Source: a virus
DNA: 64,000 nt
Direction: 5' to 3' (one strand)
Virus record (IMG/VR): IMGVR_UViG_3300031251_000007
Coordinates: 1 to 64,000 of that record
The translations under genes and the position numbers were made by a program. Of this stretch, positions 37,481 through 53,047 are shown in pieces. Each line of letters starts with the position of its first letter. The first letter of the stretch is position 1. The notes below the pieces were generated by a model, which was not told the DNA's origin, made no database searches, and saw only the letters and a program-made list of their open reading frames with translations.

Positions 37481-37818
37481 CGGCCGCGCCCCTTCAGCGC
37501 GTCGTCGATCCGCTCGAGGTGGCGCTCGTGGTCCCTGAGTTTGTCGGTGTGGCCGTCGACGCGCTCAGTGATCGTCGCCATATGCTCGCGCATGAGGCCC
37601 CAGTTCACGACAAACGCCCCGACGCCCGCGACAAGGCCGGTAAGCGCGCAGCCGACTACCAGCTGCGCCCACGACGTTCCTCCGCCGCCCTCGCGCGACA
37701 GGGCCAGCGCGCGTGCGTCGGCCAGCGCCTGCGCGGCCTGCTGCAGAGTCGCCGCGGCCGCCTCTTGCCGCGCAACCAGGCGCTCGTACTTGTCTGCGTC
37801 ATCCGCCGCCATCCCCAC
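37477..37818 (-). CDS. membrane protein with coiled coil (lysis accessory candidate)
   Basis: One TM segment plus coiled coil, directly upstream of the endolysin. Confidence 0.55.
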   Translation of the reverse strand: MGMAADDADKYERLVARQEAAAATLQQAAQALADARALALSREGGGGTSWAQLVVGCALTGLVAGVGAFVVNWGLMREHMATITERVDGHTDKLRDHERHLERIDDALKGRGR

Positions 37819-38275
37819 CCCCGGCGCGGCGCTCGCGGCGGCGCACCTCTTTTTGTAGCTGGCGCGTCGCCGCCTGCGATGCGGCGATCGCTTTGCCGAA
37901 CGTGTCGAAGGCCGCGTCGACCGATGGGTGTTCCGGCAGTTTCCAGGTCACGCCGCCGGCGCGCTTCTCGCGCAGCGATTGCACGATGGTGATCCAGCCC
38001 AGCGCGGCGGTGAGGATGGAGATCGCGCCGCCGACCGCCGAGGAGACCGGTCGCGAGGTCACGGCTCCGACCAGGAAGGGGATGCTCAGACACGAGAGAA
38101 AGGCGCCGTACCAGATGTAGAGCCGCAGCGTGCCGTCGCCGGCCGCGATACGCATCCGGCTGCCGTGCCGGCGATAGTCGTCCATCATCCCGACGCCGAG
38201 CACCAGGCACGCAACGAACGTGGCCAGGTTGGCCGGGCCTTGCAGCGAACGAAGGATCGCAAAAGAGGCGTCCAT
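37799..38275 (-). CDS. three-TM membrane protein (holin candidate)
   Basis: Three hydrophobic segments; lysis cassette context. Confidence 0.55.
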   Translation of the reverse strand: MDASFAILRSLQGPANLATFVACLVLGVGMMDDYRRHGSRMRIAAGDGTLRLYIWYGAFLSCLSIPFLVGAVTSRPVSSAVGGAISILTAALGWITIVQSLREKRAGGVTWKLPEHPSVDAAFDTFGKAIAASQAATRQLQKEVRRRERRAGGGDGGG

Positions 38276-38285
38276 CGTTTCGCCC

Positions 38286-38675
38286 TCAGCCCGCGGCAGC
38301 CGCCGGCGCTTTCTGTGCAAGCTCGACGATCTGTTGCGGCGTGAGCTGCGCGAGCGCGTTCACATGGTCGGGCGTTAGGTTACCGAACGCTGGTGCGAGA
38401 TCTTTCAAGGACTGCGGCGTGACGTCGCCGCCCTTCACCAGCACCGTGAGCAGCAGCATGATGCCGCTGCCGACATAGCCCGTTGAGCCGAGCCACTGCG
38501 TGATCGGCGCGAAGGGCCCAAAGCCGGACAGAATGCCGAGCGCCGCGACCAGCAGCATGCCGCGGATCTTGCCGGCGTTCGCGGCGATGTACGCCTTCAA
38601 CCTGCCCGACGGTCCGTTGACCGCGGCGCGAAACGTTGCCTCATCGGTCAGGAGCTTCCACAGCCAACCCAGCAT
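38286..38675 (-). CDS. two-TM membrane protein (holin candidate)
   Basis: Two hydrophobic segments; RBS GGAGG. Confidence 0.55.
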   Translation of the reverse strand: MLGWLWKLLTDEATFRAAVNGPSGRLKAYIAANAGKIRGMLLVAALGILSGFGPFAPITQWLGSTGYVGSGIMLLLTVLVKGGDVTPQSLKDLAPAFGNLTPDHVNALAQLTPQQIVELAQKAPAAAAG

Positions 38676-38807
38676 CTCCGCCTCCGTCCGATGACGACGG
38701 TGCGGGCGCTGGTCTGTACCAACCTGCTGCTTCTCCCACCGTCGAACGCCATCGCTCCTCAGCCCGCGGGAGTGCCGCGGGAAGTCAGGTGGGGGCCCTA
38801 ATCGCTC

Positions 38808-39590
38808 CTATGCCACAACGGCCGCGCGTTGCGAAGAGGTGTTGGAATAGGTCCGGCCGGCATTGACCGTGCCCGCCACTGACAGCCGGCCGGCCAGCGC
38901 AAACTCCTTCACCGTGCCCCCGTCGGCGGTCAGCGTCGCGCCGCCGAGCGTGCCGATCTGAGCGCCGCTGGCCACCTGCAGGCCGAACGGTCCGTCACAG
39001 TGAAGTACGATGCCACCGCCCGCGCCGTTGCCGGCCGAGGCCTCGCCTTCCGGCGCGCCGTGCGCGAAGACAGCCGCTGTCGCCGCGATGTGCAGCGCTG
39101 CCCTGGCGAAGAGACGGATCAGTCCGCCGCCGGCGCCGCCCGGCTGTGTGGTGCCCCCGCCGCCGCCGGATCCCTTCACGGCTGAGGTATCGGTGGTGCT
39201 GTCGCCCTGCCCTGCGCCGGCCAGATAGCCGCCGTCAACGCCGGCCGCGCCGCCGAATGGCCCCTCACCCGCAGCCGTCGCGGCGCCGCCGCGGTAGCCG
39301 AACGTCGATGAGACGAGCGCGCCCTCGAGGTCGATCGAGTGCGCATGCACTTCGAGCTCACCGAAGCTCGAGCCGTCGTAGGCCGCGACGTTGACCAGCA
39401 CACCCGGAGCGATCCAAAGCCGGCCGACGTTGCGGTGCACGCCCGCGATGACCGTGTCGGCATCGACCAGCCAGTCGTCGCCGCCGTGGTTGCCGCCGGC
39501 GGTTTCGGTCCAGCCGACGGGATCGCCGGTGGTCGCATCGGCGGTGATGCCGTATTTGGCCGCCGAGTATTTGAAAGACCCGTATTTCAT
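38808..39590 (-). CDS. Gly-rich virion-associated protein
   Basis: MKYGSFKY..AKYG start; GSGGGGG..GGAGGG and GNGAGGG repeats. Confidence 0.6.
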   Translation of the reverse strand: MKYGSFKYSAAKYGITADATTGDPVGWTETAGGNHGGDDWLVDADTVIAGVHRNVGRLWIAPGVLVNVAAYDGSSFGELEVHAHSIDLEGALVSSTFGYRGGAATAAGEGPFGGAAGVDGGYLAGAGQGDSTTDTSAVKGSGGGGGTTQPGGAGGGLIRLFARAALHIAATAAVFAHGAPEGEASAGNGAGGGIVLHCDGPFGLQVASGAQIGTLGGATLTADGGTVKEFALAGRLSVAGTVNAGRTYSNTSSQRAAVVA

Positions 39591-39591
39591 C

Positions 39592-40158
39592 CTACGGCAG
39601 CGGCACAAACCGCAGGTTCTGGACCGGCACGTCCACGTGAAACGTGTATTGCTGTCCCGTGCCGGGCTGACAGACGCCGGTCAGCACGTGCGGCTGCGTC
39701 ACCTCGTCGCTGCTGCGGCTGCAGGTTCCCGGCGCGCATTCGGCGTTGCTAGTGCACGGCTGATCCTTCTTCGGCGGCGGCGCGACGCACTTTCCAACAT
39801 AGCCGCCCGTCGCCGGCGGCAGGCGGACGGTGGCGCAGCCGGCCTGCAGCGCACAGAGCCCGGAAGTCCCGGGCGGGCAACCGGCGTCGTCGATGCAATA
39901 GTCGCCGGTGTTGGTCCCGCCGGTGCACTTCCGCGGGCATGGCTTGCTGCCCGGCGATGCTTCGGTCGTCTTGGCGAGCAGCACCTTGCCGCTGTTCACG
40001 TCGTTCACCTGATAGTCGAACGTCGGACACAGAGCGGGCTGGTGCGCCGAGTCGGTGAAGCTGAGATCGACGTCGCAGTAGCTGTCTTCGCGGCAGGCAT
40101 CGTCGGCGCGCGCCGCGATCGGCAGCGCCAGGCAGAGGCTCAGAATCAGTCGGCGCAT
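39592..40158 (-). CDS. secreted Cys-rich protein
   Basis: Signal peptide MRRLILSLCLALPIAARA; CTGGTNTGDYCIDDAGCP motif. Confidence 0.65.
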   Translation of the reverse strand: MRRLILSLCLALPIAARADDACREDSYCDVDLSFTDSAHQPALCPTFDYQVNDVNSGKVLLAKTTEASPGSKPCPRKCTGGTNTGDYCIDDAGCPPGTSGLCALQAGCATVRLPPATGGYVGKCVAPPPKKDQPCTSNAECAPGTCSRSSDEVTQPHVLTGVCQPGTGQQYTFHVDVPVQNLRFVPLP

Positions 40159-40168
40159 CGGTCCCTCC

Positions 40169-40774
40169 TCAGCGGATGACGGCCTGCACAGCGGGCGCGC
40201 GCGGCCCGGCCGAGACGTTGGGTTCGCGCACCACGATGGCCGCCCCCGGTCCGCGGATCACGGCGCCCTTCAGGAGGTAGCCGCTGCCGGGTGTTGGCGT
40301 GATCGTCGCGGTCCCCGTCGCCGTGCGCGTGTCGGTGCGCGTCGGCGTTGCCGTGACAGTCCCTGTTGGTGTCGCGGTCCGGGTGGCCGTACTCGACGGC
40401 GTCGGCGTGAACGTGTCGGTGGCGCTCGGCGTTGGCGTTGCCGTCGGCGTCGCCGTGCGCGTCACGGTGGCTGTCCCGGTCGGCGTGTCGGTTGCAGTGA
40501 GCGTGCTGCTCGGCGTCAACGTCGCCGTGCGTGTGCTGGTGCGCGTCGGCGTGTCGGTCGGCGTGGCGGTCATGCTTGGCGTCAACGTCACCGTCGGCGT
40601 GTCGGTCGGCGTCGAGCCCGGCAGCGGCGTATCGGTCGCCGTCGGCGTCATGGTGGGGGTCGGCGGCGGACCGAACAGCGGCACGAGGCCGTGCGCCGGG
40701 CGCGGATACACCGCGGCGATCGCCGCCATCAGCAGCAGCGCCAGCAGTGCGATGATGTCCGGCCAGCGCCACAC
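40169..40774 (-). CDS. exported Thr/Pro-repeat protein
   Basis: Hydrophobic N-terminus followed by about 130 aa of TPTxT repeats. Confidence 0.7.
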
Positions 40775-40846
40775 TCAGAGGCCCCGCGCACCGACGATCG
40801 CAGGCGTTGCGGACGCATTTGCGGGTATGCTCTGATCTACCCACAC

Positions 40847-41245
40847 ATGGGGTCGTCTCGCCTGCCCGCGCTGGGGATTCTGCTTGTCGGTATCGTACTG
40901 ATCGCCCGCGTAGCGGTGCGCCCCGGCGATGTCGACGCGCGTCTCGGGCACATCGCCGCCGAGCTGACCTGCGATCGAGAGCTGTCGGGCGGCAAGCGCA
41001 TCCAGCTTGTCGGAACGCAGACGGCGGCGCTCAGCGGCCCCACCAATGAGCACACGTGCGGCGATCTGCGCGTGTCGCTCGATCACGGATGCGGCGCCGA
41101 CATCGCGATCCTGCTCAACGGCGAGCTGACCGCGCTCACGTGCCATGTCGCATCGGGCGCCACGGATGCGTGCCGGAGCGGTCGGATCGTGTTGCCCGAC
41201 GGCATCCTGTCGTTGCGCGCGGTCGCCACAGACTGCCCGGCGTAG
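40847..41245 (+). CDS. membrane-anchored small protein on the opposite strand
   Basis: N-terminal TM; Cys-containing beta domain; fills the gap between minus-strand genes. Confidence 0.55.
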   Translation: MGSSRLPALGILLVGIVLIARVAVRPGDVDARLGHIAAELTCDRELSGGKRIQLVGTQTAALSGPTNEHTCGDLRVSLDHGCGADIAILLNGELTALTCHVASGATDACRSGRIVLPDGILSLRAVATDCPA

Positions 41246-41259
41246 GGTTCGTGGGCAGC

Positions 41260-43833
41260 TCATAGGTTCCCGCACGACGCGTAGGTGTCGCTGGTGCCCG
41301 TCAGGCAGTGGGTCATGAGATCGGCAAGCACCTGATTGCCCGTCGTCTGCATCGGGTTCGGGCAGCCCTGGCTACTACTGAACAAGCCGTAGGTCGGGTC
41401 GACCGAGAGATGTAGCGCGTCGCGCTCACAGCATGCGACGCGATGATTGTCGCAGCGGTTCTGCATCGCGCCGTCTGGGTCGATGGTCATCCAGCTGCGG
41501 CGCGCCGCCTCATGCTCCCAGTAGCCGCGGCTCGCCCGCAGATCGTCGCGGACGTTGGTGAACCGACACGTGAAGGTCGCCGTATCTGCCGCGTTGGTCT
41601 CCCACGTGCGCCACGGCAGGATGGCGATGAACTTCGTGCCGTGCGCCACGCCGTACGCGTCCATCGCGTCGAGGATCTTGCCGAGATAGTCCTGAAAAGT
41701 TGATTCGGTGGTGCGCTGCGCGCAGAGCCCTTGTGGGCAACCGTTCGCATTTTTCGCCGCCGGGACGCAGATGGTCGCGCCGGCACCGGTCAAGTTGCAT
41801 TGCGCCGTGCCGCCCGCGATCGGCGTTCCGCATGCCGTCGCCGGATTGGCGCCGAGCCCGCAGAAGACGCCGAAGAAGCCGGGATTGTTGCAGTAGGACG
41901 TGAAGCTGGCGAGGTCGACGGCGCCGGCCGGAATCGAGCAGGTCGAGCCCTGGATCGTGTCAGGCGTCGGCGTCGCGGGTCCGCCCGGTGTCGGCGTCGG
42001 CGCTCCCGGCGTCGGTGTAGCCGGCGCAAAACAGTATCCATCGGTCGGCGCACTGGGCGCGGTGCCGTAGTCGTTCGCGCCGTCCCACAGAAAAAAGACA
42101 TAGTCGCAGATCGCGCCGGTGGTGCCCTTGTAAACCTGCTGTTTCCAGCAGGTCGGATTGCCGCCCGCGAGCGCGCTGTTCACGCACGAGGCCGAGCCCG
42201 GCCAGAGCATGCCGAGCTTCGTGCCCTCGTTGCCGTAGTCGTAGATGTTGTCGGCGCCGTCGAGCTGCGCGGCGAGCGCCGTATACAGTGCCTGATCGTT
42301 CACCAGGCTCGTGCCGAACACGCACACGGTGTTCTTGGTGTCGCCGGTGGGGTCGGTCATCACCACGGTGGCCGGCGTCGGCGTCGGCCGGGTGACTTCC
42401 ACCTCCGCCCAGGCGTCTGTGACACGCACACGAAAGCCGGAGCTGTTGGTCGACTGTGCGTCGAGCGCGAAATCCAGCGCGTTGATGTCGGTCAGGTTCC
42501 ACGACGCGCTGCTCCAGTCAGAAGAGAACAGCGATGTCGGAGAACTCCAGTAACTCGTGCCATATCCGTTCGGGTCGAACGTCGAAGCGTAGCGCGTGGT
42601 GGTTCCGTTGCTGACACCGAAGCGGATCGGCTTGGAATTGCCATTAGCCGCCGTCTCGCGCAGGGAGGCGTTGAACCCCACCATCGCGTCCGGGCGGATT
42701 GATTCGCCGGTTCCGAGCGTCACATCTTGTAGCTGGAACAGATCAAGGTCGGTGCCCTGGATCTGCACATAGTTCGTCTCGTTGGTGTGGCCGCTCGTGC
42801 CGCTGATCGTGTCCTGCACGCATTGGTAGTCATTCGCCGGCGAGGTCCCGGTGCAGCCCTGGTTGTCGGAGGCGCCGTCTCCGCCGCTGGGCGAGCCGTT
42901 GGGGTGCAGATCCGCGAGCCGGAAAAATAGCCCAGTGTTGACGCTGCCTTCGTGCGCCAGGTTGTCGATCGAGTAGTCGATCGCGCCGGTGTTCGTATCG
43001 GTCACGCCCCAGCGAATCTCGCTCGTGTTACCGAGTGTCGTGACCGAGCACGTGCCCGCTGCGTCGCCTTCGGTGGTCTGCGAGCAATCTGTCGACTTCG
43101 CGCACGCCTCGCCGGGATGGAGCCCGCCCGTGCACACACCCTGCGCGCGTGTCTGGTTGCCTTGCAGCTTGCCGTTGACGAGCAGCCCGCACTGCACGTT
43201 GCCGGGATCGGTCAACGTGGTGTCGGTGGTAACCGCGACCTCGGAGCACGTGCCGACCTGCAAGACGGTCGAGCTTTGCGCAAAGTTGGCGGGCGCGCAC
43301 GACGCGGCGCCCGGATTCACCTCACGACACACGGTGGTATCGGTGCAGTTGGTGCCGTTATCCAACGAGCCGACGCACTCCAAGCCCGTGTCGTGAAAAT
43401 AGACGCGCAGACGCACGCCGGGGCTCTCGGCTTCCGCCATGAGGAAGCACTGCTTGGACGAGGTGGTCGCCGAGTAGAACGACACGACCTCGCGGTTGGT
43501 GCCGGTCGCCGGCGCTGCGCGCAGGCAGAACTCAAGATGCACCGTGCCGTCGGCTGTCGCGGTGACCGACGTCACCACATATTCGGTGCCACCGCTGGCT
43601 GGATTGATTCGGAGGCTGAAGTCGTCGCCGCTGTCGAGCCCACTGAGCCCGGTATTGGCCTCGATCGTGGGCGAGCCGACTACGCTGGAGAACGCTTTCG
43701 ACATGGTCGACAACGTCCACGGCGTCGCGCCGCTATCGCCGCCGCCCTCGAAACCCTCCAGCACGTCACGAGCGGCGAAGCTGGTCGAAGCAACCAGCAC
43801 GAGGGCGGCAGCGGCAATCAGTTCGCGCTGCAT
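41260..43833 (-). CDS. large secreted Cys-rich protein with C-terminal SGNH/GDSL hydrolase domain
   Basis: Signal peptide ...ASTSFA; SGNH blocks FGTSL, GNEG, GAND, DALH. Confidence 0.7.
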   Translation of the reverse strand: MQRELIAAAALVLVASTSFAARDVLEGFEGGGDSGATPWTLSTMSKAFSSVVGSPTIEANTGLSGLDSGDDFSLRINPASGGTEYVVTSVTATADGTVHLEFCLRAAPATGTNREVVSFYSATTSSKQCFLMAEAESPGVRLRVYFHDTGLECVGSLDNGTNCTDTTVCREVNPGAASCAPANFAQSSTVLQVGTCSEVAVTTDTTLTDPGNVQCGLLVNGKLQGNQTRAQGVCTGGLHPGEACAKSTDCSQTTEGDAAGTCSVTTLGNTSEIRWGVTDTNTGAIDYSIDNLAHEGSVNTGLFFRLADLHPNGSPSGGDGASDNQGCTGTSPANDYQCVQDTISGTSGHTNETNYVQIQGTDLDLFQLQDVTLGTGESIRPDAMVGFNASLRETAANGNSKPIRFGVSNGTTTRYASTFDPNGYGTSYWSSPTSLFSSDWSSASWNLTDINALDFALDAQSTNSSGFRVRVTDAWAEVEVTRPTPTPATVVMTDPTGDTKNTVCVFGTSLVNDQALYTALAAQLDGADNIYDYGNEGTKLGMLWPGSASCVNSALAGGNPTCWKQQVYKGTTGAICDYVFFLWDGANDYGTAPSAPTDGYCFAPATPTPGAPTPTPGGPATPTPDTIQGSTCSIPAGAVDLASFTSYCNNPGFFGVFCGLGANPATACGTPIAGGTAQCNLTGAGATICVPAAKNANGCPQGLCAQRTTESTFQDYLGKILDAMDAYGVAHGTKFIAILPWRTWETNAADTATFTCRFTNVRDDLRASRGYWEHEAARRSWMTIDPDGAMQNRCDNHRVACCERDALHLSVDPTYGLFSSSQGCPNPMQTTGNQVLADLMTHCLTGTSDTYASCGNL

Positions 43834-45314
43834 AGGAACGTGCCGTAGGGATACAGCGCGGTGGTGTTGTCAGTGCACGTCCCGCTGCACACCGCGTAGA
43901 AATGCACGCGGTCGCCTTGCGTGAACGTGTTCGTGGTGGTGTCGGTACAGGTGCCCGCAGCCGCGGTGACTGCACAGCTCGCGAGGGAAGTGGCACTTTC
44001 GTTCTTGGTGTAGCCAATGGTGATTGTGGCGCCGGTGGGCCACGTCCCGAAGGCATTGACCCTCGCCGAGAACGTGCCGGTGGTGCAGCTCTCCGGCAAG
44101 ATGTCGAATTCGTAGACGGTCAGTAGCGCGTTCGAAGTGTTGTCCTTGATGTACTTCCGGGACGAAAGGGTCGACGCTGTCACCTGAGCGACGCCGCGCA
44201 TAGCGAACGAGAGCCTCGCTGAGACATTGGCCTTGGTCGCAACGTCGGCGCTGTTGGAGTAGCTGCCGGCGTAGCGACACGACGTTGACGAGGTGTTGCC
44301 GCAGTCGATGACGCTGGTCACCACCAGCTTCGTCATCGTCTGCAGATTTGCGCCGAAGCTGTTCGCTTCGTCCTCATAGGCGATCGCTGTCGGGAGATCC
44401 GCCTTATCGATCGCCCCGTCCTGCGTGATCTGCGAGCCGGGTGCGACGTTGATCTTCGACGGGTCACTCGAATCGACCGACACGTCGAACAACGAGCTGA
44501 AGTTCAGGGTGAAGCCAGAGCCGATGAGTGTGCTGTTGTTCTCGACGCGCATCGGCGTCCGATCGACCGTCCACACGCCGGCCTCGCTGTAGAACATGCG
44601 CATCGACTGGCCGGCGGCGATATAGACCGGGCTGCCGGGTGTGTTCAGCACGTTGGTCACATCGGCAAATTTCACCCGCCCGGCCGATGCTTTGACGTTG
44701 AAGATCGTAACGACCTGGCCGGCGCGCGCGCTCGTCTCCTGCATCGTGCCGTCACAGCCGCCGCTGGTGTCGCTGCACGTGATCTCGACGTAGGACTTCG
44801 ACGGATCGAGGTTGAACGTCGCGGCTGAGCTGTTGCCCGAGTCGGCGACGCTGACGGCCTGCGTGTCGAGGTCGAGCACCTTCAGATCGGCGCGGCCGGT
44901 CGAGGCGTCGGAGATGCGCAGCACGCCGGCGGCGTCGCGCGCCAGGCCGACGTCGCTCCACGGCACCTGCTGGCTGTTGCCGAGCGCGCCGCTCATCAGC
45001 GCCCAGTTCTGCACGCGGGTCCAGCCCGACGCGTTGCAGCTCGAGCCGGGGCACGAGTACATCACCCCGAGATCGTCGATGATGACCTCGCCGTTCAGGC
45101 CGTCGGTCTGCGCGGTCGGTGTGTCGGCGCGACGTAGCTGCAGCGTCGGCGAGTTGGCGGCGCGACTGGTGCCGCTCGACGAATCGCCGGGGTCGATCTT
45201 GATGACGTCGACGGCGCCGTTCTTCAGGCTGACCGAGCCAGACGCGCCCGGCTGCAGAGCGAGCGACGGCGCCGCGAGCAGCAGCGCGCCAAATGCCAGA
45301 AGTACCCGGCGCAT
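43818..45314 (-). CDS. secreted fibre-like protein
   Basis: Signal peptide MRRVLLAFGALLLAAPSLA; DVGLARDAAGVLRI fibre-type motif; C-terminal beta domain. Confidence 0.65.
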   Translation of the reverse strand: MRRVLLAFGALLLAAPSLALQPGASGSVSLKNGAVDVIKIDPGDSSSGTSRAANSPTLQLRRADTPTAQTDGLNGEVIIDDLGVMYSCPGSSCNASGWTRVQNWALMSGALGNSQQVPWSDVGLARDAAGVLRISDASTGRADLKVLDLDTQAVSVADSGNSSAATFNLDPSKSYVEITCSDTSGGCDGTMQETSARAGQVVTIFNVKASAGRVKFADVTNVLNTPGSPVYIAAGQSMRMFYSEAGVWTVDRTPMRVENNSTLIGSGFTLNFSSLFDVSVDSSDPSKINVAPGSQITQDGAIDKADLPTAIAYEDEANSFGANLQTMTKLVVTSVIDCGNTSSTSCRYAGSYSNSADVATKANVSARLSFAMRGVAQVTASTLSSRKYIKDNTSNALLTVYEFDILPESCTTGTFSARVNAFGTWPTGATITIGYTKNESATSLASCAVTAAAGTCTDTTTNTFTQGDRVHFYAVCSGTCTDNTTALYPYGTFLCSAN

Positions 45315-46186
45315 CACGACAGCCTTTCGAGGCTCCAGGTGACGTACTGACTGTTTGAGAGCGTGGCAGGTGTGGCGATTTTCAACGTGGCACATTGTCC
45401 CGCCGTCGTGGTGGTGACGTGCGTGGAGTCGCTGCAACTCGCCGCCGACGCACCGCCCGTGATGGAGCAGGTCGTCGTCGCGTCAGACATGGTGCCGTTG
45501 CAGGTTCCCGTGCGCAGCGTGCAGCTGACCGTGTTGCTAGCGCCCGCGGCCGTCGTCTCCATGCAGCGCAGGTTGCTGAAAGTGCCTGCGCCGACCGGGA
45601 TCTCGGCGCGCGCCTCGGTCGTATCGGCTGTTCCGCCACCAGAGTAGACCGTTTGGTTGGTAGTCAGGTCTGTGACCGACGTGCCCCAGAGGATCGGCTG
45701 CGGGATCGCCGAGCACGTGCAGGTCGTTCCGCCACAGGTTAGCCGCTCATTGCTTGCGCAGGTCGGCTGCGTGGCGCCCAAGCCGCCGCGGCTACCGGCG
45801 AGCGTTGCCTCGCTCGACAGGTTGCCGCTGCCGTCGTTGATGACGACGTGGTTTGCGGTGCCAGCGGCAATCTTGCTTCGCGCAATCGCCGCGGCCGCAT
45901 CGATCATCGCGTTGACGACGGGCGCGAACGCCGGCGCACCAGATACGAAGGCGAACACCGTGTTCGCGCTGCCGGCCGAGGTGCATGTCATCGCCGAGCT
46001 GCCCTGTCCGTACGGCACGCCGTTGGTCGCACACGACGTCAGCGCCGGCGGTCCGGTGACCGAGATCGTGCCGTTCTGCATGCTGATGTTCGTGCCGCCG
46101 ACCAGCGCCCAAGCTATGCCCGCCAGAAGCCACACGCTGACGAGCGCCACCGCACCGACAAAGAACCGTTCGCGAATCCGCTTCAT
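45314..46186 (-). CDS. secreted fibre-like protein
   Basis: Signal peptide ...LLAGIAWA; DAAAAIARSKIAAGTANHVVINDGSGNLSSE and SRGGLG fibre-type motifs. Confidence 0.65.
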   Translation of the reverse strand: MKRIRERFFVGAVALVSVWLLAGIAWALVGGTNISMQNGTISVTGPPALTSCATNGVPYGQGSSAMTCTSAGSANTVFAFVSGAPAFAPVVNAMIDAAAAIARSKIAAGTANHVVINDGSGNLSSEATLAGSRGGLGATQPTCASNERLTCGGTTCTCSAIPQPILWGTSVTDLTTNQTVYSGGGTADTTEARAEIPVGAGTFSNLRCMETTAAGASNTVSCTLRTGTCNGTMSDATTTCSITGGASAASCSDSTHVTTTTAGQCATLKIATPATLSNSQYVTWSLERLS

Positions 46187-46196
46187 CTTCCACCCC

Positions 46197-46661
46197 TCAA
46201 AATGCTGCGACATGAGCGTGCGGCGCGCTGGCGGCCGCTCCTGCCGAATACGTAGCTTTCCAGACGGCACAGTTGCCGTCGGGAACTGTGATCGAGTGCG
46301 TGAGATCATCGGCGGTCGTGCTGGTGCCGCTGACCGTGACCACCAGCGTGCTATCGGCGAGGGCCGTGCCGCAGGTGCCTGTCTGCGCGGTGAGCGTCAC
46401 CGTCTCGCCGGCGCCAGGTGCGGTCGGTAGCGTCACGCGCGCGCGCCGAAGCACCGTTGCGTTGAGTCGCTGCGCAACTTTCGATTGCGTCGTGCTTAGG
46501 TCGGCACCGTCGATCGACAGATAGACCGTCGAGCCCGGCGTGATGTCGGTGACCGGCGTACTGCTGAACGCGTGCGGTCGCACCACCGCCGGCGACCCCG
46601 GCAGCTGCGCTGCGGCGCTCGAAGCGGCCAGCAGCGCGGCGAAGATGAGGCCGGCCCGCAT
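46197..46661 (-). CDS. secreted small beta-domain protein
   Basis: Signal peptide MRAGLIFAALLAASSAAA; paralogous to the C-terminus of 45314-46186. Confidence 0.65.
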   Translation of the reverse strand: MRAGLIFAALLAASSAAAQLPGSPAVVRPHAFSSTPVTDITPGSTVYLSIDGADLSTTQSKVAQRLNATVLRRARVTLPTAPGAGETVTLTAQTGTCGTALADSTLVVTVSGTSTTADDLTHSITVPDGNCAVWKATYSAGAAASAPHAHVAAF

Positions 46662-47215
46662 CACGGCGTGATGACCTCCAACTGCTGGCCGCTGGTACAC
46701 AGAAACTCGATCGTGCCGCAGTCGTCATCGGCCGCCGGTGCGATCGTAAAGTCGTAGGTGCCGGGCTCTAGGCGCCGACTGTTCGATGTCGTCACACCCG
46801 GGTAGCCGACGTGCGCGATGTCGTTGCCGAGCGGGTTGGTGATGCGCAGCTGTACGCACGGGCGCCAGCCGCTGCCGAGCGTAACGGCAGTGCCGGTACC
46901 GGCGCAGTTGATGCGGCCGTTCTTCCGCACAGCGCTGCTCGGAAGGCGGCTGACGATGTCTTGTGCCGGCGCCTGTGCGCAGCGCCCGACGACCGCGCTC
47001 CCGGGACAATCGGAGTCGAGGTTGCAGCCGGCGTCGTTGGCGTCGCCGGCATTACAGCGATTGCGGACGTCGAGCCCGACGACGGTGCCAGTGCTGTCCT
47101 CGTACGGATTGATGACGCCGAACTGCGCGCGCGCCATACCGCCGAGTAAGAGCACAGCACCGAACGCAGCGGCCCGCGCCACCGCGCCACCCATCCACCG
47201 CCACGTTCGGTGCAT
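46661..47215 (-). CDS. secreted Cys-rich protein
   Basis: Signal peptide ...GGMARA; CNAGDANDAGCNLDSDCPG motif; RBS GGAGGAGG. Confidence 0.65.
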   Translation of the reverse strand: MHRTWRWMGGAVARAAAFGAVLLLGGMARAQFGVINPYEDSTGTVVGLDVRNRCNAGDANDAGCNLDSDCPGSAVVGRCAQAPAQDIVSRLPSSAVRKNGRINCAGTGTAVTLGSGWRPCVQLRITNPLGNDIAHVGYPGVTTSNSRRLEPGTYDFTIAPAADDDCGTIEFLCTSGQQLEVITP

Positions 47216-47246
47216 CCGCTCCTCCTCCACCCAACCGTTGAGGTGC

Positions 47247-47618
47247 TTAGCTCTGCGCGGCCGACTGATCGGCCGGCGGCGCGCTCGGCACCGGGTTCTC
47301 CGGGTCGGCGCCGATGGCGCGCAGCGCGTCCAGGTGCGCGTTGATCTCCGTCTGGATCTGCGCCGCCTGCTCGTCGGTGAGGCCGCCGGCTTGCTGCTGC
47401 GCAACGAGGGCGGCCAGCTTGTCGGCGATGCGCGTGGTCTCGCTGTCGACCGCGCTCAGCGCGCTCTGAATGTCATCGAATCGGGGCATGAGTTCCTCCT
47501 TCGTGGCGATCCGCGCCACACGGGCATTGGTGCGCAGCGTGGCGCACAAGTTGACGACGCCGAGCGCGGCCAGTCCGCAGACCGCCGCGCCGGCGCCAAT
47601 GAGAAGAGCCGTCGTCAC
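47247..47618 (-). CDS. membrane-anchored coiled-coil protein
   Basis: N-terminal TM followed by a helical region. Confidence 0.55.
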   Translation of the reverse strand: MTTALLIGAGAAVCGLAALGVVNLCATLRTNARVARIATKEELMPRFDDIQSALSAVDSETTRIADKLAALVAQQQAGGLTDEQAAQIQTEINAHLDALRAIGADPENPVPSAPPADQSAAQS

Positions 47619-47622
47619 GGCG

Positions 47623-47955
47623 TTAGGAATTCGGACCCGGATCGACGACCTGCTCGATGTTCCACTGCACCGCCGCGATCGGGTTGAAGTTGATCAGCGG
47701 CAGGTACGTCTGCGCGGCGATCGACGAGAGCGGCGTCAGCACGTTGGCCACCGCCTTCAGGTCGTTCAGCGCATCCGCCAGATTCACCTTCGAGCTGACC
47801 GGCACGACCAGCGGGGCCGGCGGCGTCTTGCCGGCCGGCACGCCGAAGACGATCCGCACCGACACGTTCCAGTGCGACGTCTGGGCCTGCGCCTGCGGGG
47901 CGCCGAGGGCGGCGAGGCCGACCAAGGCGCAGATGAACAGGAACTTGCGAAGCAT
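47623..47955 (-). CDS. secreted small protein
   Basis: Signal peptide MLRKFLFICALVGLAALGAPQAQA; RBS AAGGAG. Confidence 0.65.
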   Translation of the reverse strand: MLRKFLFICALVGLAALGAPQAQAQTSHWNVSVRIVFGVPAGKTPPAPLVVPVSSKVNLADALNDLKAVANVLTPLSSIAAQTYLPLINFNPIAAVQWNIEQVVDPGPNS

Positions 47956-48172
47956 GTGCGACTCCTTCTGCCGCCTCAGGGGCGGCGGTTTCGGTTTCCC
48001 AGCCCAGGTACCCGCGCCCCGGCTTGAGGCGCGGCGTCCGTGGGACGTTGGCGGCGAGTAGAAACGCGTCCGGCAGTGCCCAGCCGAGCGCGACGTAGGC
48101 GCGGCGCACCTCGGCCTGGAGCTCGGCCGCGATGTGCAGCCGAAAGGCAGCGACCTGACGCGACTTGGCCAT

Positions 48173-48523
48173 TTAGGCGCACGCGCATCCCTCCGGGGTC
48201 GGCGCCCAGTACGGGCCGCTGGCGCGCTTGCCCGGTGCGCAGACCCGCGGACAGGCGCAGATGTGCGGCTCACAGGTGGGCGCCGAAGCGAAGCAGCCAG
48301 CCGGCACCTGTGGACAGGCGGCGGCGCGCGCCGTGACGGCCGAGGCGATCGCCGTCTGCCAGGCGCTCGACGGCGTCGGCTCGGCGGCCGGCGCCAGCTG
48401 CACCAACGCGGCGCGCTGTGCCGCGAACCCCGACGAGACCGGCGTCGGGCTACAGGCAGCGATGCACAGCGCGATCAGGACCGCGCCGAGTAGCGTCTTG
48501 CCTTGTTCCTCTGCGACACCCAT
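48173..48523 (-). CDS. Cys-rich putative lipoprotein
   Basis: Lipobox-like IAAC; many Cys at the C-terminus. Confidence 0.5.
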   Translation of the reverse strand: MGVAEEQGKTLLGAVLIALCIAACSPTPVSSGFAAQRAALVQLAPAAEPTPSSAWQTAIASAVTARAAACPQVPAGCFASAPTCEPHICACPRVCAPGKRASGPYWAPTPEGCACA

Positions 48524-48832
48524 GCACCAACCTCCACGGCGGTGAAGCCGTGCGTGATTGCAGGGGCGTCGGGCGGGGCGGGCACGCGGTGGAACGCGCG
48601 GGCACCCCAGACGGGCCTGTATGTTCTTAGCGGCGCTCTACCACATTGCCGCGGGCTTGAGAATTCTCCTCGCTGAGTAGGTCCATAATCGCCCGCAAGC
48701 GCTGGTTGTACTCGCGAAAGTCGCGGGCGCGGTGCGCCTCACGGGCGGCGCGCGCATGCCGACGTACGTTGACGTCGAAGGGGTCGGGCGCCGGCGTGCT
48801 GCCAGCCCCCGACCGGATGTGGGGAGTTCGAT

Positions 48833-49102
48833 TCACGCGACCCTGAATATTGGATAGACGACAGGAACTTCCGCGCCGGCGGCCATTGGATCGAAGGAGT
48901 CATGCGCGAAGACGAGCCGAAATACGTCCTCGGCACCGACGTAGCCTGATCGGACAAGCTCTGCAGTCTCCGGGATCACCACCGGCTCAGTGGGGGCCGA
49001 ACCTGGCGCGCCGCGCCGTATCAGCGACGCAACGACTTCAGGCGCCACATGGACTTCTCGAAAGCGACCTTCCGCAATTGCCTTGAGCTGCTTCTCCACC
49101 AC
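48833..49102 (-). CDS. hypothetical protein
   Basis: RBS GGAGG; 89 aa. Confidence 0.55.
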   Translation of the reverse strand: MVEKQLKAIAEGRFREVHVAPEVVASLIRRGAPGSAPTEPVVIPETAELVRSGYVGAEDVFRLVFAHDSFDPMAAGAEVPVVYPIFRVA

Positions 49103-49131
49103 ACACCTCCGCCAGTTGACCGCCGGGCGCC

Positions 49132-49686
49132 TTACGCGGCGTCTTCCGCCTCGAAGCCCGCCTGCGCCGCCGCATCGGTGAACAGCGGCGTCAGGATCAT
49201 CAGCGCCAATGTAGAGAGCTTCTTCGCGGGAATCAGCTTGTAGCCAAAACGCTGCACCTTGACCTCGACTTCCTGCTTCATGAAGTCGTCGAAGCCCTGC
49301 CGGCGCTGCTCCTCCGCGTTGATCGCCGCCATGTGCGTCTCGCGCAGCTCGGCGAACTTCTGATCGAACTCGGCCTCGCGTGCCTTCTCCATGACGTACC
49401 GGCTGCCGCCCTCGGGCAGCGCCAGCACCTTCGCCTCGCCGCCCTCGCCCTTCTCGGCATACTCCTGCGCAAGCGCGCTGCGCGCCTGCTCAAACGCCAG
49501 GAACGCCTTGCCGGGCTTCTGCGCCTCGCGCACCGCATCGACCTCGCTGCGCAGGCTGTCGCGTGAGAGCTTCAGCGCATAGGCGAGCTTGTAATCGGGG
49601 CCGTCCATCGCGCCGGCGACGTGATCGATGGTGCCGGCGAGCTCCAGCACGTCGCGGCGCTGCATCTTGATCGTATCGAGGGCCAT
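49132..49686 (-). CDS. helical protein downstream of the tail fibre (possible chaperone)
   Basis: RBS AAGGAG; KLAYALK..., coiled coil, EVEVK motif typical of fibre-adjacent genes. Confidence 0.6.
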   Translation of the reverse strand: MALDTIKMQRRDVLELAGTIDHVAGAMDGPDYKLAYALKLSRDSLRSEVDAVREAQKPGKAFLAFEQARSALAQEYAEKGEGGEAKVLALPEGGSRYVMEKAREAEFDQKFAELRETHMAAINAEEQRRQGFDDFMKQEVEVKVQRFGYKLIPAKKLSTLALMILTPLFTDAAAQAGFEAEDAA

Positions 49687-49717
49687 CGGGGGTCTCCTTC
49701 TGCGTTGGGGGTTGGGG

Positions 49718-52700
49718 TCACGCAATGTTGGAAAAGTACGGGACGTAAACGATGTTGCCGGCGTTATCGTGCACCTGCAGATAGCCGGTGTTGTCGCGAC
49801 TCGTGCCGGCGGTGAGCTTTAGCGATCCGACGCCGGTTGACAGGGAGGTGTTCACCGCCTGGACGCCCAGCACGCAGCGCTCGGTGCCGTCCTCGGCGCG
49901 GAAGAACACCCAGGACTTTCCGGCCGCCGCGTCCTTCGCGTAGATCTGCACGGAATCGGCCGGCGACGATGTCGGCGCCGTCGCGTTGGTAATGCCGATC
50001 ACGTTCTTTGCCGACGTGCCCACCGACGTGCTGCCCAGCTTCAGGTTCACGCCATCGCTGAACATGCTGAAGCCGCCGAGCGTGGTGCCACTGGTGTCGC
50101 GCAGCGAGACGAACGAGGAGCAGATGAGCGCGCCGTCGGCGTTGACGGCGAACATGACCGTCGTCCCGTTGTTCGCGAAGCCGGTGATCAGGTTTGCCGA
50201 CTGGCTCGACGTCCGCCGGATGGTGATCGCCGTCATGTCGCTCGGGATCTCGAACACCATCTGCGCGGTCAGCGTGGAGGTGCTGGAGCCGATGACCAGC
50301 TTGTCGGTCGCGGTGACCAGGCGGATGGTCGTGCCGTCGTCACTCCAGCCGCCACCACCGCCGCCGGACGTCAGGTCGAGCCACGTCGAGCCGTTGTAGA
50401 AGTAGAGCTTGCTGTCGCTGCTCTTGGTGTAGAGCGCGCCCAGCTCGGTCGGCGGCGCGCCGCTCTGCGGGTAGAGGATCATCCCGCCGGCGGCGTAGAA
50501 GCCGAAGCGTACGTTCAGATCGTTGGTCGCGGATCCCGTGTCGATGCCGCACAGGATGAACTTGTCCTTGCGGTAGCTCGACGAGGTGCCGATGCCGTCC
50601 CAGTACGACGCGACAATCATCGCCGCCGGAATCGGGTACGACGTGTCGGCCATGTTCAGCAGGCTGGCGTTGGTCAATACGGCGCCGTTCAGCGGCGCGT
50701 AGTCGAACCCCCAGAGCGAGCGCGGCCCGTGCGACGTCAGCCCTGCGTGACCTTCGACGCTGATGGGCCGGTACTGCCGGTTCATCTTCTCGGCGCCGGC
50801 GGTGGCGAATCCGGCCGTAACGGCGAGCGGGTTGATGTGCAGCCCGCGGATCGTCCACGAGGTGTTCGTGATGTTGTGCGTGATGCTCTGGCCGAGCGTA
50901 ATGCCGGTGTTGCCGCGGAAGTAGAAGCCGATCAGGTTGTGATAGGTCGACGTCGACGACTCGAGTTGCGTGTGGCCCGCCATGAAGCAGGCTTCCGGCG
51001 AGGTGCCGCCGGCCGCACCGACGTCCGCGCCGTTGTAGTTGAGCTCGCCGCCGACGCCGACGATCAGATTCCACTGGCCAATGCCGGCGCCGAGCTCGCA
51101 CGTCGCGTCGACGCCGTACAGGTTGTAGCTCGCGAACGTGCCGGCATAGTCCGCGCCACCAGAGCCCTTGGCGAACTGGCAGTGCATGCCGCAGTACACG
51201 GCCGACTGCGCGTTCGTCGTGCCGGCGAACATATTGAGCGCGATTGCGTTTGACGGGATCATCAAACGCATTTCGTTCGTGTAGATCGCGCAGAACCGCC
51301 GCGTGGCGCTGTTGGTCGAGACGCCGTCGATCTCGTAGCGCAGGTCGCCGACCAAGCTGATGCCGGCCTGGTAGACGCTGTCGCCACCCTTCGGGATGGC
51401 GCGCGCGCCCGGGCCGATGGTCAGGTAGCGCGTTTTCATGACCGTGCGGCCGCCCTCGAGCCATGCCGCCTGGCCAGAGATGGCGTCAGCGTGGAACGTC
51501 CGCAGCGGATACGCCGTCGACGTCGTCAGCGCCTTGGCGTAGAGCACGTTGCCGCCGGCGGAGGCCGCGACCGACTCGCCGAGCGTCAGGCCGGCCACAT
51601 CGCCGGCGCCGAGCGCCCAATTCCACACCTGCGCGTTGGCGCCGTTGGCAATCGTGTTGCCGCCCGCGGCGGCTGTTAGGCTGCTGAGCGCGGCCGTGCC
51701 GGCGACGCCGCTGACCCAACTGAGTACGCCGGTGCCGTCGGTCGCGAGCACCTGGCCTGCGCTGCCGTCGTCGGGCGGCAGCGTGTACGTGATCGTGCCG
51801 CCGGACGCCGGTGCCTTGATCAGCGTCGCGCCACTCGTCGCGCCGGTGAGCGTGATGCCGAAGCCGGCTTGCGTGGTGAGCGCGCGCGTCGACAGCGCAC
51901 CGGCGCTGCTGACGCTGACGTAGGTGCTGGCGCCCGAGTTGTCTTGAACTTCGAGAATGTTCGCCGACTGCGACGCCGCGCCGCGGATGCGCGTGGCAAC
52001 CTTGGTCGCCAGCGACGACACGACGCCGAGCTGCGCGGCGATGTCAGCCGTTGCCGCCGCTGAATCACCGAACAAGGCGTTCAGGCTCGGGCCGAAGATC
52101 TTGAGCGCCAGATGCGCGGCGGAGAACAGATTCGCTTCGGTGTCGATGTTGACGCCGAAGAAGTGGCCGGTGCTGTTGGTGGCCCCGAGGATCGCGCCGG
52201 CGGCGCCGAGCAGGCCCGCGGCCGCCGTCGCCGTCGTCTTCGAGAAGAATCCGCCCGCTGCGGTCACACTCGCGATCGGCGTGCCACCGCTGCTTCGCCA
52301 TTCGGTGAACGCGCCCGTCGGCGTCGCCGCATGTTTGATGACCAGCGGAATGTCAGATGCCGACCCGGCCTCGACGTACAGCCGCGAGTTCGCCGCCGCG
52401 GTGGTTGCGCCGACCGCCACCTGGTCGCTGACCGTCGACAGACGCACGACCGTACCATCGTCCTGCCATCCGCCACCGCCGCCGCCGGATACGGTTGCCC
52501 ACGCGCACACGCCACCGGAGCCGACCTGTAGGAACTGGCCGGCGGTGAACGTCGACGGCAGCGTATAGGTGACCGTGCCGGCGCCCGAGGTTGCGGCGAT
52601 CGATACCGCCTCGCTGCCGGCGCCGCCGAGCTTGATACCCTGCTTGAACGCGGGGACAGTCCCGTTGAACGTCCAGGCGCCGATGATCGTCTCGTTGCCC

Positions 52701-53047
52701 GCATTGCGCGCGAGGATCGCGCCGTCGACGATGTCCGCCTCGACGATCGCGCGGAAGCCGCAGGCGGTTGCCGAAGAGGCGAACAGCGCATGCCCGACCG
52801 TCAGACCTGAGAGCGAAAGCGCGCCGAGCGTGTGCTTGTGGCCGGGGTCGATCGAGGCCGCGTTCTTGATCAGCCACTCGTGCGAGGTGGTGACCGCGGA
52901 GCTATCGATCCCGACTTTGGCCTCAAGCGCTAAGATTGCCGCGGCTCGGTCGTTCTGATGCGCCGCCAGCACATCGTCGACGCCGTCGGTCAGGACGGGG
53001 AACGTCGTGCCGGTGGTGTCGAGCGCCGCAGGATAGTTGATTGCCAT
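49718..53047 (-). CDS. tail fibre / receptor-binding protein
   Basis: MAINYPAALD...ILALEAKVG N-terminus; YTLP..DGSAGQVLATDGTGVLSW; duplicated GGGGGGW.DDGT.(V/I)RL motif. Confidence 0.8.
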   Translation of the reverse strand: MAINYPAALDTTGTTFPVLTDGVDDVLAAHQNDRAAAILALEAKVGIDSSAVTTSHEWLIKNAASIDPGHKHTLGALSLSGLTVGHALFASSATACGFRAIVEADIVDGAILARNAGNETIIGAWTFNGTVPAFKQGIKLGGAGSEAVSIAATSGAGTVTYTLPSTFTAGQFLQVGSGGVCAWATVSGGGGGGWQDDGTVVRLSTVSDQVAVGATTAAANSRLYVEAGSASDIPLVIKHAATPTGAFTEWRSSGGTPIASVTAAGGFFSKTTATAAAGLLGAAGAILGATNSTGHFFGVNIDTEANLFSAAHLALKIFGPSLNALFGDSAAATADIAAQLGVVSSLATKVATRIRGAASQSANILEVQDNSGASTYVSVSSAGALSTRALTTQAGFGITLTGATSGATLIKAPASGGTITYTLPPDDGSAGQVLATDGTGVLSWVSGVAGTAALSSLTAAAGGNTIANGANAQVWNWALGAGDVAGLTLGESVAASAGGNVLYAKALTTSTAYPLRTFHADAISGQAAWLEGGRTVMKTRYLTIGPGARAIPKGGDSVYQAGISLVGDLRYEIDGVSTNSATRRFCAIYTNEMRLMIPSNAIALNMFAGTTNAQSAVYCGMHCQFAKGSGGADYAGTFASYNLYGVDATCELGAGIGQWNLIVGVGGELNYNGADVGAAGGTSPEACFMAGHTQLESSTSTYHNLIGFYFRGNTGITLGQSITHNITNTSWTIRGLHINPLAVTAGFATAGAEKMNRQYRPISVEGHAGLTSHGPRSLWGFDYAPLNGAVLTNASLLNMADTSYPIPAAMIVASYWDGIGTSSSYRKDKFILCGIDTGSATNDLNVRFGFYAAGGMILYPQSGAPPTELGALYTKSSDSKLYFYNGSTWLDLTSGGGGGGWSDDGTTIRLVTATDKLVIGSSTSTLTAQMVFEIPSDMTAITIRRTSSQSANLITGFANNGTTVMFAVNADGALICSSFVSLRDTSGTTLGGFSMFSDGVNLKLGSTSVGTSAKNVIGITNATAPTSSPADSVQIYAKDAAAGKSWVFFRAEDGTERCVLGVQAVNTSLSTGVGSLKLTAGTSRDNTGYLQVHDNAGNIVYVPYFSNIA

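Follow-up and report, generated by a model that had tools for sequence, protein, structure and literature searches.

A cassette of cysteine-rich, partly fibre-derived proteins with predicted export signals in the late region of a temperate soil phage

The stretch of DNA analysed here (the window, 64,000 nucleotides) comprises bases 1-64000 of an 87,781-b virus genome, IMG/VR record IMGVR_UViG_3300031251_000007, that is rated about 90% complete and has 64-69% G+C. Judged by its genes, the virus is a temperate, siphovirus-like soil phage. The window contains ten consecutive minus-strand open reading frames (ORFs), named J-I-H-G-F-E-D-C-B-A in the order in which they run from position 48523 down to 39592, each with a hydrophobic export-type N-terminus (Table 1). 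Comparison with related loci supports the view that this block is a conserved cassette, seen only beside phage genes, and not loose host cargo. The makeup of the proteins supports the view that they are built for export and disulfide bonding, and D, E and F appear, from sequence matches and structure models, to be built from modules of receptor-binding proteins (RBPs). The best explanation, put forward as possible rather than probable, is a set of late glycan binders derived from RBPs, accompanied by an esterase, that would mature in the periplasm and act on envelope glycans free of the virion.

Export signals and cysteine content

Signals were scored with a rule of our own, not with SignalP, that asks for a charged n-region, an uncharged h-region and either the -3/-1 rule or a lipobox, with a score of >=3.4. 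The rule is passed by nine of the ten block ORFs (all but H) and by 2 of the 108 other ORFs of the genome (Fisher p 6e-11). A, B, C, D, E, F, G and I pass with signal peptidase I (SPase I)-type sites, and J passes by its lipobox. A first-pass annotation, made from the letters of the window, had placed a signal peptide or lipobox on nearly every ORF of the block and had named nine of them. All nine exist on the minus strand, the coordinates listed for them being their low, stop-side ends, and they are the nine that pass the rule; H is a tenth that had not been listed.

Across relatives of 26-63% identity the signals keep their position while their sequence drifts. By the rule a signal is present in 13 of the 16 proteins of the D family, the misses being one truncated gene call whose locus shows the full signal, one protein with an HNH-like upstream extension, and P0031, which scores 3.2. 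The E family has a signal in 8 of 9 proteins, and its one miss, P0156, shares the N-terminal pattern of its relatives. The extended D-family protein, P0013, is a single ORF in which an HNH-endonuclease-like N-terminal extension precedes a signal-like segment; the extension is probably a gene-call fusion with an upstream homing-endonuclease gene. Tat was considered as the main export route, several signals beginning MRR, and was rejected on a reading of the sequences, the signals being short (18-30 residues) with strongly hydrophobic cores. A second spanin pair formed by H and J was also considered and set aside, since the gene order is reversed and another pair of a lipoprotein and a transmembrane (TM) protein lies at 36004-36680. 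With N-termini of this kind, the cassette products would be cleaved and exported.

The richness in cysteine that the first-pass annotation had reported for several members is borne out by counts: J, G, E, D, C and A contain 2.4-8.6% Cys, and 12 other large phage proteins contain <=1.4%. In mature form the seven Cys-containing members of the block have 8, 8, 2, 12, 12, 34 and 14 cysteines, an even number in every case. When relatives are cut at a fixed point, residue 32, the count is even in 30 of the 34 that have mature Cys (binomial p 3e-6), and two of the four odd ones turn even when an evident cleavage site is used. Within the D N-domain, the first Cys pair is wholly present in 9 and wholly absent in 2 of 11 sequences and is never split. 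Export signals together with paired cysteines make folding outside the cytoplasm probable, and disulfide bonds would be expected to form there.

Conservation of the cassette

A HMMER search with D returned 176 proteins at E <=0.001, 19 of them at <=1e-10. The close relatives keep the signal and, directly behind it, an N-domain of ~80 residues; beyond that, the modules in the middle and at the C-terminus are shuffled. The best-matching relative, a hypothetical protein, comes from a 6.8-Mb metagenome-assembled genome (MAG) named 'Deltaproteobacteria bacterium'. The cassette locus of this MAG (L002) lies in a prophage that extends from an integrase-like gene (~14.9 kb) as far as the end of a 54.3-kb contig of 70% G+C, which ends before the tail genes. 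By tblastn, F (50% identity), E (48%), D (50%) and C (28%) are found there in the same order, followed by a B-like Thr/Pro-rich ORF; four more signal-bearing ORFs flank the set. A small ORF with a signal and a coiled coil (7979-8272) is the analogue of H. The order G-F-E-D-C-B recurs in this prophage and in two metagenome contigs, L011 and L012, some copies being partial. L011 reads RadC-G-F-E-D-C, with a G homolog at tblastn E 4e-9, and L012 reads F-E-D-C followed by a GDSL lipoprotein (Pfam-confirmed), then an HslV-like peptidase and a B-like ORF. A has 6 homologs of 58-65% identity. One of these shares an 83,880-b contig with homologs of D and E, and cassette homologs are carried as well by contigs of 90,721 b and 134,135 b; the proteins on the three contigs are P0014/P0158/P0219, P0031 and P0152. 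As far as these loci allow it to be drawn, the core of the cassette consists of G, F, E, D, C and B, with J, I, H and A accessory in the window phage.

The cassette of the L002 prophage has the portal/RadC-InPase genes on one side and the gene for the major head protein (phrog_752, E 1e-61) on the other, and is thus not next to tail fibres. The window phage and this prophage have the large terminase (63% identity) and the cassette in common, and the other structural genes are without a match at tblastn E 1e-4. The first-pass annotation had named conservation in related phages as a check, and had allowed that the genes might be unrelated host-derived cargo. The same-order cassette in the prophage and the two metagenome contigs agrees with the former; the latter is not what was found, the cassette being conserved, seen only beside phage genes, and placed on the late strand with tight spacing.

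Other searches delimit the distribution. C and the D-family alignment had no match in IMG/VR contigs, and isolated phage genomes had none by blastn with 39500-47400 or by tblastn with D and E. Among 401 genomes of the MAG's phylum, the D-family profile found the MAG itself and one marginal match (E 8e-4, with an internal stop). Sequence searches of the PDB with profiles A4 and A3 returned nothing meaningful.

Several neighbours of the related cassettes can be recorded here. A RadC-like JAB-domain gene precedes the cassette at L002 4592-6304 (+) and at L011 3-926 (+), and in L002 it is fused to an inorganic-pyrophosphatase-like domain (InPase, E 1.4e-51). The same prophage encodes a further signal-bearing, Cys-rich protein between terminase and portal (31735-32898 (+)), with a DUF4215 repeat (E 4e-6). 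In L012 the C homolog is 1044 amino acids (aa) long and has an extra C-terminal domain; the GDSL lipoprotein lies at 6199-6801 (+) and the peptidase at 6776-7570 (+), the latter matching phrog_1040 at E 1e-12.

Fibre- and tailspike-derived parts of D, E and F

In the E family the mature N-terminus and the Cys-rich C-terminal domain are conserved and the middle module is swappable. Residues 87-137 of E, the shaft motif, match signal-less fibres with an hhalign probability of 97% (E 9.9e-11, 69% identity over 51 columns). Partial matches to E, sharing the shaft motif only, lack a signal by the rule in 45 of 50 cases and nearly all contain 0-1.2% Cys (one has 2.6%); several carry the Pfam families Phage_phiTE_241_C, Phage_depo_C and Collar. 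In a comparison of E's mature N-terminus with those of fibres lacking a signal, the alignment was confined to the shaft motif.

In the AlphaFold2 model of E the mean pLDDT (predicted local distance difference test) is 61, with 72-89 across residues 160-290. This part is modelled as a jelly-roll head, whose best solved matches are XepA (6i56_D, Z 9.7, root-mean-square deviation (rmsd) 2.6, 103 residues aligned) and 4-1BBL (Z 8.9); the matches of the model in BFVD are collagen-like and fibre proteins with jelly-roll heads. Modelled in three copies, residues 140-290 of E gave a trimer score of 0.92 against 0.00 for the best control, with a partner pLDDT of at least 91 and a contact agreement of at least 92%; the mark of 0.92 is also reached by 20 of 30 proteins solved as one-chain pairs and, among proteins solved as single chains, by 1 of 23. 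Likeness to solved TNF-like trimers may underlie the pass. Residues 35-135 of F are homologous to E 169-269 (E 2e-8), and F homologs are present in L002, L011 and L012.

The model of D has a mean pLDDT of 64, residues 150-255 and 370-498 being well modelled. Its central beta-sandwich resembles the C-terminal domain found in the tailspike depolymerase 24qj_A (Z 9.9, rmsd 2.4, 85 aligned), and its match to Pfam Phage_depo_C falls below the cutoff at E 2e-4. For the head of D the match is to 4-1BBL (6fib_C, Z 9.9, rmsd 2.8, 117 aligned), with heads of phage fibres at Z 8 and XepA at Z 7.4. Since the Z scores are modestly above those of unrelated beta-sandwiches, the fold matches are read as fold class and not as homology. 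The tail-fibre motifs that the first-pass annotation had seen in two of the proteins are confirmed, in E by a profile-profile match and in D at the level of fold and domain.

Among the best 150 of the 176 matches to D, 134 share only the central domain, and 77 of these carry a signal by the rule. Several members of a scanned sample of 41 central-domain relatives are right-handed beta-helix, pectate-lyase-like proteins. Because so many of the relatives bear signals and some are like beta-helix depolymerases, the central domain of D is taken to be common in secreted glycan-active proteins; to judge from these sequences, it circulates between such proteins and phage tailspikes. The signal-bearing central-domain relatives span apparently very different taxa, and secreted proteins of phage-depolymerase architecture may be widespread.

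C, a candidate SGNH-type esterase

By sequence C is an orphan: a word-indexed search of 5.8 billion proteins returned only C itself among 8000 scored candidates. The alignment of C with its homologs from the related cassettes shows the blocks of an SGNH-type hydrolase. Block I reads GDS in the three homologs and GTS in the window protein, with the Ser invariant. Block III (GxND) reads GAND, GAND, GAND and GYND, and block V (DxxH) reads DALH, DCIH and DGVH in three of the four sequences, the L011 homolog ending earlier. For block II, GG(R/T) aligns in the homologs and the window sequence is gapped. A large Cys-rich insert separates block III from block V. For residues 490-857 the neighbours by structure in the Atlas are SGNH/GDSL clusters, with TM-scores by row of 0.6-0.78, and the N-terminal half has LamG-like Atlas neighbours, both sets being leads only. 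With no match to the Lipase_GDSL or Lipase_GDSL_2 profiles, C is filed as SGNH-like by motifs and not as profile-confirmed; its esterase activity is putative. Remodelling of the host surface, one of the two roles proposed in the first-pass annotation, gains some support from these motifs.

Expression layout

The cassette shares its strand with the late structural genes. Gaps inside G-F-E-D-C are -16 to 31 nucleotides (nt), and there are wider ones ahead of J (103 nt), I (217 nt) and B (485 nt). A sigma-70 consensus scan found 0 promoter-like sites (1.4 expected), and 10 terminator-like sites were found against 9.5 expected; with no excess over expectation, the scan is uninformative. A search of sequencing runs listed eight DNA runs that contain parts of the stretch and no RNA run. 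Contigs of four of the DNA runs gave short identical pieces at low depth and low-complexity-repeat noise, and yielded no information about variation or expression. Late co-transcription is therefore a reading of the gene layout.

Possible role of the cassette

In the proposed mechanism the genes would be transcribed late with the structural genes, and their products would cross the inner membrane by Sec, J taking the lipoprotein route. They would be oxidised and would oligomerise in the periplasm, meeting cell-surface glycans at lysis or earlier. D, E and F would then bind, and C would de-esterify, envelope or matrix polysaccharide, with the outcome that the receptor is masked or destroyed on the dying cell and its debris, or that neighbouring cells are conditioned. 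B could serve as a Thr/Pro-rich spacer, membrane-anchored or secreted, and C could join a lectin-like half to its SGNH-type esterase. Action free of the virion is favoured because the position of the cassette is not tied to the tail genes, because it travels between phages that share little else, because the central domain of D is common in secreted enzymes, and because the described analogue, XepA of the defective prophage PBSX, is late, exported and absent from particles.

Several points weigh against this explanation. Glycan binding by the cassette proteins, like their independence from the virion, is something that we infer. The fold matches lie at Z 8-10, a range in which common beta-sandwich arrangements score too. 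The layout of D, with a conserved N-domain after the signal and shuffled distal modules, resembles that of virion-attached RBPs and fits docking on virions at least as well as action as a free factor. C is without a Pfam match even at E 10 and without a PDB sequence match (profile A4), and its block I departs from GDS. Cleavage is backed by a crude rule and not by experiment or a trained predictor; the rule is permissive, since it flags 18 of the 108 outside ORFs when relaxed to accept every score and every start within the first 40 codons. Two relatives stay odd in Cys after correction of the cleavage site, and the late timing is deduced from how the genes are arranged. In a diderm host, moreover, a Sec signal by itself delivers a protein to the periplasm only, which leaves contact with surface glycans before lysis unexplained.

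Docking on virions is the strongest of the alternatives, and is unlikely. In this two-compartment assembly D, E, F and perhaps C would be exported, disulfide-bonded and trimerised in the periplasm, and would join virions at holin lesions or lysis. Besides the layout of the D family, it draws on the RBP-like heads and the shaft and tailspike modules of D, E and F, on the predicted trimer of E, on the place of the window cassette inside the tail-fibre region, flanked by signal-less fibre-like genes at 49718-53047 and 38808-39590, and on the finding of the cassette in structural-gene operons at all four loci. No tailed-phage precedent is known to us, and literature searches yielded none; the tail proteins of the phage form a full set without signals, no alignment was obtained between the mature N-terminus of E and those of signal-less fibres, and XepA, the nearest described analogue, is reported to be absent from particles. 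The position in L002, between portal and major head genes, leans against a fixed docking site on the virion, and no conserved docking partner is evident, since only the large terminase and the cassette are common to both phages; this comparison is limited by the end of the L002 contig before its tail genes. Of the interpretation offered in the first-pass annotation, an exported, disulfide-bonded appendage possibly joined to virions, the export and disulfide design and the fibre-like members thus hold on sequence evidence, and a fixed docking site is what the prophage leans against. Doubtful to a similar degree is a portable 'periplasmic fibre kit' of exported fibres and an esterase spike, added at lysis and exchanged among phages of soil Deltaproteobacteria/Myxococcota-like hosts.

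It is rather less likely that the cassette, or a part of it (J, the opposite-strand ORF in the C-B gap, B), is expressed from the prophage in lysogenic conversion or exclusion. Its products would then be envelope adhesins, receptor masks or surface enzymes that change adhesion or block superinfection, in the manner of Lom, Bor, Cor and Llp. The phage is temperate, with an integrase beside tRNA-Trp, and its relative is an integrated prophage; the genome carries another envelope moron, the BamE-domain lipoprotein, J is itself a predicted lipoprotein, and the gaps of 103, 217 and 485 nt could hold internal promoters. Against this, the core genes overlap or abut on the late strand, the sigma-70 consensus scan, the one scan made, gave no promoter-like site, and ten genes in ~9 kb are far above the size of known exclusion morons.

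In an improbable reading the proteins, acting beyond the cytoplasm, assist in breaching the envelope or, once released, kill neighbouring bacteria, as has been proposed for cytotoxic XepA or for lectin-like bacteriocins. A single gene (K) separates the end of the window cassette from the putative lysis region downstream, the E head has its best solved match in the XepA N-domain (Z 9.7), and XepA is reported to be cytotoxic in plate assays (PMC6834076). That match is tied within ~1 Z unit with TNF-like and other jelly rolls, and D reaches only Z 7.4; the predicted assembly, with three copies modelled, is a trimer and not the XepA pentamer. The cassette of the related prophage is far from any lysis gene seen, and library scans of the members found no toxin, pore or peptidoglycan-hydrolase family.

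Finally, it is very improbable that the N-terminal segments are not export signals, the proteins being cytoplasmic with hydrophobic N-termini or some ORFs miscalled: the permissiveness of an untrained rule, the ambiguous codon usage of J and B and the lack of a charged n-region in H speak for it, and against it stand nine adjacent proteins with canonical n-h-c layout and small -3/-1 residues, signals that hold their position in diverged relatives, a Cys density that exceeds that of other phage proteins by a factor of 2 to 6, together with even counts, and the Cys-poor state of shaft-motif relatives without a signal.

Comparison with known systems

Full-text literature searches, which included the main text of a 2026 myxobacterial-virus preprint, found no description of a signal-bearing, fibre-derived cassette among late genes, in line with the earlier suggestion that the block may be undescribed. 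The common view of tailed-phage RBPs is that they fold in the cytoplasm and contain few disulfides; the fibre-derived family described here has conserved export signals and paired cysteines, and these proteins travel as a multi-gene cassette inside late operons. The occurrence of the same shaft motif with and without a signal, in Cys-rich and Cys-poor forms, is a natural contrast. If the proteins act free of the virion, they would form a new class of late exported phage factors that bind and modify host surface glycans, with a bearing on loss of phage to debris, on spread in matrix-rich soil communities and on alteration of the host. If they join the virion, the assembly route would be one not known for tailed phages. 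Single exported phage proteins, such as XepA, are already known; virion attachment, if shown, would be categorically new.

XepA comes from the PBSX prophage of Bacillus subtilis. According to PMC6834076 its gene lies just ahead of those for lysis, and the protein appears late, is exported and does not occur in particles; in PMC1266369 it is listed among proteins secreted without a classical signal. Among solved structures, the best match of the E head is the N-domain of XepA (6i56). This protein is the product of one gene of a monoderm host; it forms a pentameric dumbbell and has no fibre-shaft motif, whereas the cassette has 6-10 genes in a diderm host, classical signals, many disulfide-type cysteines and a predicted trimer. 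Homology of E and XepA is not claimed, because the fold match is tied with TNF-like proteins.

Likeness to classical fibres and tailspike depolymerases is seen in the E shaft motif, the D beta-sandwich and the modular shuffling of the D family, and the heads of D and E resemble PRD1 P5, a cyanophage short fibre and the fibres of Agrobacterium phage 7-7-1 (Z 6.6-8.1). Unlike classical fibres, cassette members carry N-terminal export signals and are high in Cys, and their membership of the virion is only putative. Lom and Bor of lambda, Cor and T5 Llp are phage proteins with Sec or lipoprotein signals, often encoded next to genes for tail fibres or lysis, whose site of action is the host envelope; by masking the receptor, Llp keeps progeny from being lost on debris. 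Such envelope morons are single small genes, usually early or prophage-expressed, and unrelated to fibres, in contrast to a conserved multi-gene cassette of large fibre-derived proteins and an enzyme on the late strand.

Receptor-destroying esterases of SGNH type include the O-acetyl esterases of phage tailspikes and the haemagglutinin-esterases of influenza C virus and coronaviruses. C keeps the Ser, Asn and Asp-x-x-His motifs of these enzymes and may have a lectin-like half (a lead), and like the viral haemagglutinin-esterases it is apparently built for a secretory route and has many cysteines. It differs in having no detectable sequence family, a large Cys-rich insert and an activity that is only predicted; phage esterase tailspikes are, for their part, cytoplasmic virion components. 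Exported Mtd-like variable proteins of diversity-generating retroelements (DGRs), such as LdtA of Legionella and TvpA of Treponema, combine RBP ancestry with export or lipoprotein signals and reside in the envelope of bacteria. Mtd_N clusters are among the Atlas feature neighbours of D. A DGR was rejected, there being no template/variable repeat pair in 36000-53100 and no reverse transcriptase family among the window ORFs scanned, which were not all of them.

Gene models and genomic surroundings

Start codons in the block were picked by Shine-Dalgarno context. No member from J to A has an above-cutoff family in Pfam, PHROGs or NCBIfam. Codon usage points to the minus-strand frame in the case of I, H, G, F, E, D, C, A and K, and J and B are ambiguous with respect to the antisense frame. 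J has 8 Cys beyond the lipid-modified one and an n-region of about neutral charge. If H starts instead at an internal ATG (47489, AGGAGG), its product would be a soluble protein of 80 aa; as modelled in Table 1 it has a signal score of 3.09 against the bar of 3.4, and a Flagellin_N match below cutoff. B consists of MWRW and a hydrophobic segment, ~150 aa of Thr/Pro-rich repeats and a short variable tail. A short Cys motif of the type C-x-G-G-x-G-x-x-C-x-x-x-D-C-x-G-x-C recurs in A, C, G and the C homologs. The opposite-strand ORF in the gap between C and B has a codon score that is not decisive and no PHROG, and it is missing from L002, where C and B abut.

Table 1. Positions and properties of the cassette ORFs and of neighbouring features (window coordinates; a slash marks the signal cleavage point; empty cells, not given)
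Feature	Position	Strand	Length (aa)	Cys	Description
J	48173..48523	-	116		Predicted lipoprotein, Pro-/Cys-rich; lipobox L-I-A-A-C24, signal peptidase II (SPII) score 6.4
I	47623..47955	-	110	none in mature part	ATG 47955, AGGAG 6 nt upstream; signal AQA/Q
H	47247..47618	-	123		GTG 47618; uncharged hydrophobic N-terminus and helical, coiled-coil-like part
G	46661..47215	-	184	8	Signal ARA/Q; C-x-G-x-C-x-D-C-x-G-x-C type mini-motif
F	46197..46661	-	154		Signal AAA/Q; body homologous to C-terminal head of E
E	45314..46186	-	290	12	Signal AWA/L; shaft motif 87-137; predicted jelly-roll head 160-290
D	43818..45314	-	498	12	Signal SLA/L; ~80-aa N-domain; predicted beta-sandwich 149-252; head 366-498
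C	41260..43833	-	857	34	Signal SFA/A; candidate SGNH-type esterase domain about 490-857
Opposite-strand ORF	40847..41245	+	132	6	Hydrophobic N-terminus; in 485-nt C-B gap; gene status uncertain
B	40169..40774	-	201	none	AHG/L signal or uncleaved anchor
A	39592..40158	-	188	14 (mature)	Signal ARA/D; AGGAGG 5 nt upstream
ORF K	38808..39590	-	260	1	Gly-rich, no signal peptide; downstream flank
Putative tail fibre	49718..53047	-	1109	0.9%	No signal peptide; assigned by position; upstream flank of cassette
Phage-tail_3/Rcc01698_C/Laminin_G_3 protein	53799-58424	-	1541		Family-confirmed
BamE-domain lipoprotein	60659-61207	+	182		Lipobox LLAG/C; Pfam E 6e-14

An integrase with an Arm DNA-binding domain (9150-10400) adjoins a tRNA-Trp gene (11023-11093). 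Terminase, portal, major head protein, adaptor and major tail protein are encoded in the same genome outside the window, and the minus strand of the window carries a tape-measure-sized gene and a family-confirmed BR0599/gp84-type hub (58903-60474). The Phage-tail_3 protein is followed by a 245-aa protein with weak matches to tail-fibre PHROGs and then by the putative tail fibre, which three small signal-less ORFs separate from the block. The putative fibre has no match in family libraries, in isolated phage genomes (tblastn) or among PDB sequences. A Gly-run motif, GGGGGGW-x-DDGT..RL.T, occurs in it twice, near residues 190 and 905, and suggests an internal duplication of a module boundary.

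On the other side the cassette is flanked by ORF K, which is accordingly treated as a boundary marker and not as a member; BLAST found no similarity between K and the Gly-rich C-terminus of P0031, the D-family relative. The presumed lysis region (36004-38675 (-)) beyond it encodes a 192-aa protein, three TM proteins and a lipoprotein whose Lpp-like matches are weak, and owes its label to the TM proteins, the lipoprotein and below-cutoff matches only. The 192-aa protein has no family match and no PDB sequence match; if it is an endolysin, it lies outside all families in the libraries searched. Placement of the block between tail fibre and lysis genes, as first proposed, thus holds as regards the upstream Phage-tail_3 protein and the hub, while the 1109-aa fibre and the lysis region are unconfirmed by family.

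The BamE-domain lipoprotein gene, from which a diderm host is deduced, sits on the opposite strand within the tail module, between the tape-measure-sized and hub genes, and looks like an envelope moron. Counter-defence and modification genes, recorded at 2172-2909 (-), 1190-1768 (-) and 24852-25466 (+), encode a homolog of Acb3 (E 1.7e-42), an inhibitor of the cyclic-oligonucleotide-based antiphage signalling system (CBASS), a Mom-family protein, three DNA methylases and a sulfotransferase-family protein. The portal, 810 aa long (75252-77684 (-) of the genome), matches head-morphogenesis and head-maturation-protease PHROGs over its C-terminal third, which suggests a fusion with a MuF-like or protease-like domain.

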